From: Escherichia coli
Lineage (GTDB): Bacteria; Pseudomonadota; Gammaproteobacteria; Enterobacterales; Enterobacteriaceae
NCBI RefSeq assembly: GCF_003334785.1
Contig: NZ_QOWV01000002.1
Reading direction: 5' to 3' (one strand)
DNA length: 64,000 bases
Shown here: positions 884 to 2,593 of the stretch, in pieces
Numbering within the stretch: position 1 is the first letter of the stretch
How the letters are laid out: each line of letters opens with the position of its first letter
The notes under the pieces: generated by a model
The model's input: only the letters and a program-made list of their open reading frames with translations
Database searches by the model: none
Told to the model about the DNA's origin: nothing
Made by a program: the position numbers and the translations under genes

Positions 884-1030
884 ATGAGCAAGCAAGTAAC
901 ACTCATGACTGATGCGATTCCTTATCAGGAGTTCGCAAAACTAATAGGAAAATCGACATGAAGTGGTTTACTGAATTTGGCCACCTGAACAGAGGTGATA
1001 TGCTCACCTCAGAACAACACAGGTGCCATA

Positions 1031-1333
1031 ATGAAAAAAAGAAATTTCAGCGCAGAGTTTAAACGCGAATCCGCTCAACTGGTCGTTGACCAGAATTACA
1101 CCGTGGCAGATGCAGCCAGCGCTATGGATGTCGGCCTTTCCACAATGACGCGATGGGTGAAACAATTACGTGATGAGCGGCAGGGAAAAACACCAAAAGC
1201 CTCCCCCATTACCCCGGAACAAATTGAAATCCGTGAGCTCAGGAAAAAGCTACAACGTATTGAAATGGAAAATGAAATATTAAAAAAGGCTACCGCGCTC
1301 TTGATGTCAGACTCCCTGAACAGTTCTCGATAA
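1031..1333 (+). CDS. IS911 OrfA (HTH/leucine-zipper transposition regulator)
   Basis: [53 protein letters not shown]... matches IS911 OrfA (InsN) as recalled. Confidence 0.9.
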
Positions 1334-2178
1334 TCGGGAAACTCAGGGCGCGTTATCCTGTGGCCACTCTCTGCCATGTGTTCGGGGTCCATCGCAGCAG
1401 CTACAAATACTGGAAAAACCGTCCTGAAAAGCCAGACGGCAGACGGGCTGTATTACGCAGCCAGGTACTTGAACTGCATGGCATCAGCCACGGCTCTGCC
1501 GGAGCAAGAAGCATCGCCACAATGGCAACCCAGAGAGGCTACCAGATGGGGCGCTGGCTTGCTGGCAGACTCATGAAAGAGCTGGGGCTGGTCAGCTGTC
1601 AGCAGCCGACTTACCGGTATAAACGTGGTGGTCATGAACATGTTGCTATCCCTAACTACCTTGAACGGCAGTTCGCCGTGACCGAGCCAAATCAGGTGTG
1701 GTGCGGTGATGTGACCTATATCTGGACAGGTAAGCGCTGGGCGTACCTCGCCGTTGTTCTCGACCTGTTCGCAAGAAAACCAGTGGGCTGGGCCATGTCG
1801 TTCTCGCCGGACAGCAGGCTTACCATGAAAGCACTGGAAATGGCATGGGAAACCCGTGGTAAGCCCGTCGGGGTGATGTTCCACAGCGATCAAGGCAGTC
1901 ATTATACGAGCAGGCAGTTCCGGCAGTTACTGTGGAGATACCGGATCAGGCAGAGTATGAGTCGGCGTGGAAACTGCTGGGATAACAGCCCAATGGAGCG
2001 CTTCTTCAGGAGTCTGAAGAACGAATGGGTGCCGGCGACGGGCTATGTAAGCTTCAGCGATGCAGCTCACGCAATAACGGACTATATCGTTGGATATTAC
2101 AGCGCACTAAGACCGCACGAATATAATGGTGGGTTACCACCAAACGAATCGGAAAATCGATACTGGAAAAAACTCTAA
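1282..2178 (+). CDS. IS911 OrfB (DDE transposase catalytic part), expressed as OrfAB fusion by -1 frameshift at A-AAA-AAG (1282-1288)
   Basis: ORF in -1 frame relative to OrfA ending at 2178; slippery heptamer AAAAAAG inside the OrfA LKK codons; IS3-family architecture. Confidence 0.85.
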
Positions 2179-2398
2179 CTCGGTGGCCAGTTTTTGTTGA
2201 CCACTTCAACAGGAGCGGTTCGTCGGATGATCGATAAAGGAAAGCTGCCTGTAATTGATATGACCGATCCACAATCAGCTTCAGGTCGTGCAGGTGAATA
2301 TTGGGTATACCTTCCGGCATGGAATAACGGACTAAAACTGGCTTATGAAAGCCGCCCTAAAGAGATTCGTGACGGCTGGTTGATGTGGTTAGGTCTCG

Positions 2399-2593
2399 GT
2401 GAACCACGTTAAGGAGAACCGTATGAATGAGCCTCGTTGTATTGCTCAGTTACTGCGTAACGAAAGCCCCAGGGCGATTGACTTCACCATCACCCACGGT
2501 AAGGGGCGTAAGGGAATCATTATCCGCACCAAAAAACAGAGTCCGTTAAAAAAGGCTCTGACCTTTCTGAAAAGCCGGAGGGTATGGAAATGA
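2399..2593 (+). CDS. Small early-operon protein (P2 orf78 position)
   Basis: ORF directly after cox and before B; synteny with P2 early operon. Start uncertain. Confidence 0.45.
   Translation: MNHVKENRMNEPRCIAQLLRNESPRAIDFTITHGKGRKGIIIRTKKQSPLKKALTFLKSRRVWK

Follow-up and report, generated by a model that had tools for sequence, protein, structure and literature searches.

ISEc52 insertion in the cox gene of a defective P2-type prophage of Escherichia coli

We analysed a 64,000-nucleotide stretch of an Escherichia coli genome (contig NZ_QOWV01000002.1 of assembly GCF_003334785.1; hereafter, the window), in which the cox gene of a P2-type prophage is split by a 1250-base-pair (bp) insertion sequence (IS). 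In all likelihood, this element, which we assign to ISEc52, landed at the boundary of codons 25 and 26 of cox as the second lesion in a prophage that was already non-viable owing to a deletion of late genes, and the insertion belongs to ordinary prophage decay.

The insertion in cox

The cox gene starts with an ATG at position 884, and both direct reading and a script show that its codons 1-25 (MSKQVTLMTDAIPYQEFAKLIGKST) close with the ACA at 956-958. The frame expected to encode 91 amino acids (aa) is interrupted there, running into a stop at 959-961 directly after codon 25. Because this TGA belongs to the IS itself and halts translation after 25 aa, the cox allele is null and encodes a 25-aa stub. 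When positions 884-958 are joined directly to 2212-2412, the result is a 276-nucleotide (nt) open reading frame (ORF), and the 91-aa protein that it encodes is identical to the crystallized P2 Cox at every position (91/91 against PDB 4LHF). The rebuilt 1368-bp segment C-cox-orf78-B aligns with phage P2 (AF063097) in one ungapped piece at 99.7% identity. A rebuilt 400-bp empty site is found with at least 80% coverage in 396 complete E. coli genomes, and in all eight of the best records listed it matches at 100% identity over its full length. ACA is single-copy in the uninterrupted gene, and therefore the pair that flanks the IS represents a true 3-bp target-site duplication. A preliminary description of this DNA had proposed just such a precise insertion, adding that removal of the IS together with one ACA would restore a 91-aa Cox; except for the name of the IS, every coordinate and sequence fact of that proposal is confirmed, the restored product by its match to 4LHF and the uninterrupted alleles by the 396 genomes.

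Other copies of the element are bordered by different triplets. An identical copy in NCTC9967 lies between TAG/TAG and a related copy in Shigella dysenteriae between GTA/GTA. Three bp is the usual duplication for ISEc52, which fits the 3-4 bp carried by the circle junction of IS911 (PMC2909936).

Two small features of the right junction may be mentioned. A TTG-initiated ORF of 72 aa (2194-2412, plus strand; MLTTSTGAVRRM...) begins inside the right inverted repeat (IRR) of the IS and is in frame with the 3' fragment of cox. Neither a ribosome-binding site nor a promoter is evident for this ORF, its product would be without the first helix of the helix-turn-helix (HTH), and it is probably meaningless. 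The target sequence to the right of the insertion (2212-2220, GGAGCGGTT) matches the left end of the IS (960-968, GAAGTGGTT) at seven of nine positions. Under some conditions, IS911 inserts beside sequences that resemble its inverted repeats; the match seen here is short and may be due to chance.

Identity and integrity of the element

The 1250-bp IS begins with TGAAGTGG and ends with CCACTTCA, and its organization is that of the IS3 family. A slippery heptamer links its orfA to orfB, which lies in the -1 frame, and an N-terminal HTH is combined with a C-terminal DDE domain (Pfam HTH_Tnp_1, 1.2e-12, and rve, 3e-31). Imperfect inverted repeats (IRs) of the form 5'-TG...CA-3' (TGAAGTGGT... / ...ACCACTTCA) are flanked by the duplicated ACA. 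These terminal 36-bp repeats match at 25 of 36 positions, the first nine bases being identical, and the IR pattern occurs at these two places only in the whole window, with 0 matches expected by chance. The product of the -1 fusion, OrfAB, has 382 aa and contains D227, D287 and E323. Within the 100 bases around the frameshift heptamer, just three differences separate the window IS from the copy labelled IS911. The lengths of the IRs (36 bp), OrfA (100 aa) and OrfAB (382 aa) equal those reported for IS911 (PMC2909936), so that in organization the element conforms to IS911. Thus, the complete IS that had been described, with its IRs, OrfA, OrfB and frameshift site, is present in full; it is structurally intact and appears to be structurally competent.

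Nucleotide identity points to a different name. Six records from four other strains, chromosomes as well as plasmids among them, contain copies identical to the window IS at 1250/1250 positions, and these copies bear the name 'IS3-like element ISEc52 family transposase' in the annotation of the Prokaryotic Genome Annotation Pipeline (PGAP). Copies on S. dysenteriae plasmids that are named 'IS911 family' are 93.9-94.2% identical to it. Among these, the plasmid copy of S. dysenteriae NCTC 9718 annotated as IS911 served as the comparison partner in place of the original X17613 reference, and it differs from the window IS at 73 of 1250 aligned positions (94.2% identity). By ISfinder convention, isoforms share roughly 95% nucleotide identity or more. 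The near-identity expected of IS911 in the strict sense was not found, the value of 94.2% referring to the NCTC 9718 copy and not to X17613. The name ISEc52 is taken from PGAP-annotated copies in place of the ISfinder reference sequence; ISEc52 is a separate entry in ISfinder, and an element of E. coli Nissle has been reported to be fully identical to it (preprint 10.64898/2026.07.28.741313). Based on these comparisons, ISEc52 should be the name of the element, which belongs to the IS3 family and is IS911-like. The name IS911, used in the preliminary description, has to be given up in view of 94.2% identity to the copy labelled IS911 against 100% to those labelled ISEc52.

The annotation of these copies needs a comment, since PGAP flags copies identical to the window IS as 'frameshifted' pseudogenes. 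We considered and rejected the possibility that the flag denotes a dead IS. A run of six A near the orfB stop (2168-2173), present both in the window and in the ISEc52 copies, leads to an OrfAB of 382 aa, the length reported for IS911 (PMC2909936), and this form is found in many identical copies. The S. dysenteriae 'IS911' copy (1249 bp) has five A at this place, which results in a 389-aa OrfAB with its stop, a TGA, inside IRR. Hence, the flag is probably an annotation artefact that can be traced to A6 versus A5, and it could mislead counts of 'intact' IS copies.

In agreement with the earlier suggestion of a recent copy, the insertion appears to be recent, because six other records contain copies with 100% identity to the IS at unrelated loci, and because its ends and the duplication are intact. 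Matches of the ISEc52 type lie at many different loci, with up to 25 matching places in one record.

Deletion of late genes

The insertion had been interpreted as if the prophage were otherwise competent. This does not hold, since a 2993-bp deletion has removed eight genes and the start of S. The prophage, about 30 kilobases (kb) long, occupies the cyaR/yegQ (trhP) site and is collinear with P2 in gene order up to the attR core, in five blocks of 94.8-99.9% identity; attL and the remainder of int are not covered by the window. At the deletion, window position 15657, which corresponds to P2 5949 directly downstream of gene M, is followed by P2 8943, a position within gene S; lost are L, X, Y, K, lysA, lysB, lysC, R and the first nine codons of S. 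When every P2 protein was used as a tblastn query, no match to L, X, Y, K, lysA, lysB, lysC or R was obtained within the 64-kb window. Every other gene of the P2 backbone is present at full length, namely Q, P, O, N, M, V, W, J, I, FI, FII, E, T, U, D and ogr, as well as C, orf78, B, orf80-83, A, orf91, tin and old; among these, C, old and tin show no damage and reach 99-100% identity to P2. The set of essential head, tail and lysis genes is thus incomplete. Because the genes for capsid completion, holin and endolysin are missing, together with two tail-completion genes and an intact S, the prophage could neither form virions nor set them free, with or without a working cox.

Order of events and alternative explanations

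The same M/S junction is found, base for base, in exactly one of 5,426 complete E. coli genomes, that of IAL7250 (NZ_CM130729.1). The P2-like prophage of IAL7250 occupies the same place in the chromosome, flanked by yegR and ogrK/trhP. Its cox is uninterrupted and represents a different allele and immunity type; ParB-like and Dam genes stand where the window has tin and old, and there is a further deletion of tail genes. Divergence between the two strains amounts to 2.6% in the late region that they share and to about 1.4% in the host flanks (~98.6% identical), which is why we consider them to be distinct lineages. The deletion junction contains 3 nt of exact microhomology (TGA), and since an identical junction is unlikely to recur independently through so short a microhomology, the deletion seems to be old and inherited. 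The IS insertion, on the other hand, seems to be young, because the IS differs at 0 positions from copies at other places and the Cox sequence flanking it is identical to P2 Cox. Taken together, these observations suggest with moderate to high confidence that the deletion most likely came before the IS insertion.

Several considerations weigh against our reading. The proposed order is based on parsimony, and prophages are mosaic, IAL7250 having another immunity region and other cargo. Recombination could in principle have joined an early region with the split cox to a late region bearing the deletion, or the reverse. The missing late genes could sit elsewhere in the genome, beyond the 64-kb window, and attL together with two-thirds of int, on which excision would also depend, lies beyond it as well. 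Moreover, the block to excision, the polar effect on B and A and the activity of the IS are all inferred.

The insertion itself appears to be confined to this strain among the collections that we searched. With 400-bp queries, neither of the two IS-cox junctions was found spanned in the 5,426 complete E. coli genomes, and the left junction, searched as an exact 35-mer, gave 0 matches both in 100,044 GTDB species representatives and in JGI metagenome contigs. A literature search for IS in cox of P2-like prophages found nothing specific. The host flank of the window is 99.7% identical to E. coli NCTC9100.

It could be argued that the insertion was selected. A knockout of cox would fix a domesticated remnant supplying C immunity together with old and tin, and would block expression of B and of the A nickase from Pe, which might be harmful coming from a prophage unable to excise or lyse. 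In such an adaptive lock, excision would be abolished and B and A would be cut off from Pe, perhaps with weak constitutive read-through from the IS into orf78 and B; the latter is conceivable because the first plus-strand terminator-like site downstream of the IS is the terminator that follows B. The preservation of C, old and tin would agree with selection, as would the position of the IS between Pe and B/A in the same orientation and the apparent retention of the defective lineage in two E. coli lineages with host flanks about 98.6% identical. However, a neutral hit explains all of this equally well. The insertion is present in no other genome searched and so gives no sign of spread or recurrence, the identity of the IS to copies elsewhere indicates a recent event, and IAL7250 has kept the same deletion together with an intact cox, which means that loss of cox is not needed for retention. 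Consequently, we regard selection of the insertion as unlikely, and the adaptive lock as similarly doubtful.

Less probable still is the reverse order of events, in which the IS first inactivated a live prophage, and the L-to-S deletion either arose later or was acquired by recombination with a defective relative. The prophages are mosaic: in its early region the window shows 98.5-99.9% identity to P2, whereas IAL7250 has a different cox allele and different cargo; the early and late regions thus differ in history, and this makes recombination plausible. Nevertheless, the 2.6% divergence of the deletion-bearing late region between the strains marks the deletion as old, the undiverged IS and the P2-identical Cox mark the insertion as young, and the same junction would hardly have formed twice through the TGA microhomology. 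Finally, misplacement of the IS as a repeat during assembly, an artefact named beforehand in the preliminary description as grounds for refutation, can practically be dismissed: most E. coli genomes carry ISEc52 and IS911-like sequences in multiple copies, yet here the element ends exactly at its inverted repeats and is accompanied by a perfect 3-bp duplication of a single-copy site, the signature of transposition.

We therefore return to a deletion followed by an insertion, that is, to ordinary prophage decay and not the silencing of a live phage. IS hits in prophage genes and stepwise decay of prophages are commonplace, and point mutants of cox with an excision defect are classic (PMC3936717). 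The event that we describe is of a known type, and only this particular case of it is new, as the insertion was absent from every collection searched. It offers a clean and well-documented case of stepwise decay, in which a deletion of morphogenesis and lysis genes is succeeded by an IS in an excision/switch gene, and it has little import beyond annotation.

Predicted consequences of the loss of Cox

IS911-type elements move by a copy-out/paste-in pathway via a circular intermediate. In the proposed scheme, a copy of ISEc52 would have inserted in this way into cox, the first gene of the early operon transcribed from Pe, duplicating ACA. The promoters Pe (TTGACA-17-TAGTAT in a promoter scan) and Pc, the operators O1 and O2, and the C gene are all unaffected by the insertion. 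Cox is needed for excision, represses Pc and activates the PLL promoter of satellite P4, and cox-defective prophages show no spontaneous phage release (PMC3936717); the roles of excision directionality factor and Pc repressor that had been ascribed to Cox agree with this source. Within Cox, T25 has been proposed to be a DNA base-recognition residue, and the C-terminus drives oligomerization (PMC3936717). The break falls directly after T25 and three residues away from the excision-defective cox3 mutation (G22E), and the 25-aa stub is without most of the winged HTH, including the wing, and without the whole C-terminal oligomerization domain with its helices (PMC3936717).

In the absence of Cox, Int-mediated excision would not take place, Pc would not be repressed, which would make the C-repressor (lysogenic) state irreversible, and the P4 satellite would not be activated through PLL. 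On the basis of established P2 biology, the loss of Cox should abolish both excision and Pc repression, locking the remnant in place. In practice, since the prophage was already dead, the net effect would only be to anchor a defective P2 remnant which still encodes C immunity, Old and Tin.

As to the genes downstream, orf78 and B are now parted from Pe by the IS, which has the same orientation, and the 1.25-kb insert may be polar on orf78-B-A. A scan for plus-strand terminator-like sites detected none inside the IS, the first one, at 3112-3127, being the known P2 terminator after B. Because the IS has no such terminator, polarity on B and A is possible but stays an inference, through either Rho or uncoupling of translation. 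We also considered whether the outward-facing TTGACC in IRR (2197-2202) might create a hybrid promoter at the junction. This candidate was rejected, as no acceptable -10 is seen by eye at a distance of 16-18 bp and the scan was negative at the junction.

For practical purposes, annotations should list the prophage as defective and name the IS ISEc52. The region of about 30 kb would probably pass as 'intact' in prophage-prediction tools, although it is unable to make phage. The strain is probably no helper for P4-type satellites, because Cox as well as lysis and tail-completion genes are missing; it still carries old, tin and P2 immunity. All in all, the biological weight of the cox insertion is much smaller than the preliminary description implied.

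Other features of the window

Coordinates of the features are collected in Table 1.

Table 1. Positions of the split cox gene, the insertion sequence and further prophage features in the window
Feature	Coordinates	Strand	Basis or remark
P2 int, 5' part, codons 1-118	1..354	-	tblastn with P2 Int residues 1-118, 100% identity
C immunity repressor, intact, 99 aa	470..769	-	100% identical to P2 gpC
Early promoter Pe (-35 763-768, -10 786-791) with C operators O1 (773-780) and O2 (795-802)	763..802	+	AF063097 annotation transferred
Promoter Pc (-10 841-846, -35 861-866)	841..866	-	AF063097 annotation transferred
cox 5' fragment, codons 1-25	884..958	+	reading of the window; translation ends at the first triplet of the IS, TGA 959-961
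Target duplication, left copy ACA (Thr25 codon)	956..958	.	single ACA in P2 and in intact alleles
ISEc52 (IS3 family, IS911-like), 1250 bp	959..2208	+, same orientation as cox and Pe	identity to annotated copies; Pfam
Left inverted repeat (IRL), 36 bp	959..994	+	script and alignment
orfA, 100 aa	1031..1333	+	length equals IS911 OrfA (PMC2909936)
orfB frame, open from 1276; ATT 1279, 299 codons, stop 2176-2178	1279..2178	+	
A AAA AAG programmed -1 frameshift heptamer, in orfA/orfB overlap	1282..1288	+	
IRR, 36 bp	2173..2208	-	script and alignment
Target duplication, right copy ACA	2209..2211	.	reading of the window and script
cox 3' fragment, codons 26-91 and stop	2212..2412	+	frame resumes at 2212; stop 2410-2412
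orf78	2423..2593	+	intact, 100% identical to P2 Orf78
B	2590..3090	+	intact, 100% identical to P2 gpB
2993-bp deletion junction (CAGTGASGGTGACCGGACT)	15652..15657	.	P2 5950-8942 missing
Short H-like fibre gene	19509-20645		
Fibre-assembly gene	20647-21087		
Assembly gene of alternative fibre tip	21059-21661	-	
Alternative fibre tip, opposite orientation	21661-22203	-	
DNA invertase	22225-22824		phrog_125, E=1.5e-101
attR core, right prophage end	29589..29615	+	comparison with P2; identical to 27-bp P2 attP core

The tail-fibre region of the prophage (19337-22824) is not P2-like, and P2 G and fun(Z) are absent. The region looks like an invertible host-range segment of the Gin/Cin type; no crossover sites were recognized in it, only weak 18-nt inverted repeats. 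At the right end of the prophage, the gene for the small RNA CyaR (29592-29677, minus strand, 100.7 bits) overlaps the attR core, so that the phage core supplies one end of cyaR. Nearby, IAL7250 has a ParE/ParD toxin-antitoxin pair between trhP (yegQ) and yegP (15547-16328 of the compared locus), which the window does not have (31212-31234); this is a small indel polymorphism beside the prophage attachment site.

Farther into the host flank, two tandem SIB RNA genes (Rfam RF00113; 43037-43179 and 43366-43514, minus strand, 142 and 149.5 bits) lie upstream of the mdtABCD-baeSR cluster. SIB RNAs are the antitoxin RNAs of the Ibs/Sib type I toxin-antitoxin pairs. A JUMPstart element (RF01707; 59328-59366, plus strand, 57.3 bits) is located upstream of ORFs at 59545-63298 (379, 147 and 732 aa), an arrangement that would suit the beginning of an operon for polysaccharide export of the wza-wzb-wzc type, the gene names being putative.

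Comparison with known systems

Among characterized elements, the window IS closely resembles IS911 of S. dysenteriae. The two have in common a length of 1250 bp, imperfect 36-bp IRs of the TG...CA form, a 100-aa OrfA and a 382-aa OrfAB produced by -1 frameshifting at A AAA AAG, as well as an ATT-initiated orfB frame of 299 codons, the DDE triad and a 3-bp target duplication. At the level of residues, OrfA is identical to that of the IS911 copy at 99 of 100 positions and IRR is identical, whereas positions 9-11 of IRL read CAC in the IS911 copy and TTT in the window, and about a dozen substitutions distinguish the OrfB proteins. No sequence difference was found from the ISEc52 copies, which are identical to the window IS over all 1250 bp.

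As for the lesion, its nearest relatives are the P2 cox point mutants cox2 (M42T) and cox3 (G22E), which affect the same gene in the same type of prophage and for which the expected phenotype is likewise no excision and no spontaneous release (PMC3936717). Unlike these, the lesion in the window is an IS insertion that leaves a 25-aa stub and is probably polar on downstream genes, in a prophage without lysis and head- and tail-completion genes. The cryptic P2 remnant of K-12 (ogrK-yegZ, by cyaR/yegQ) offers a parallel for the prophage as a whole, being a decaying prophage of P2 type at the same site, in keeping with the ogrK annotations. The K-12 remnant is not known to keep more than ogr and a fragment of D. 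Compared with that far more eroded remnant, the prophage in the window retains about 30 kb, and just two lesions are seen in it.

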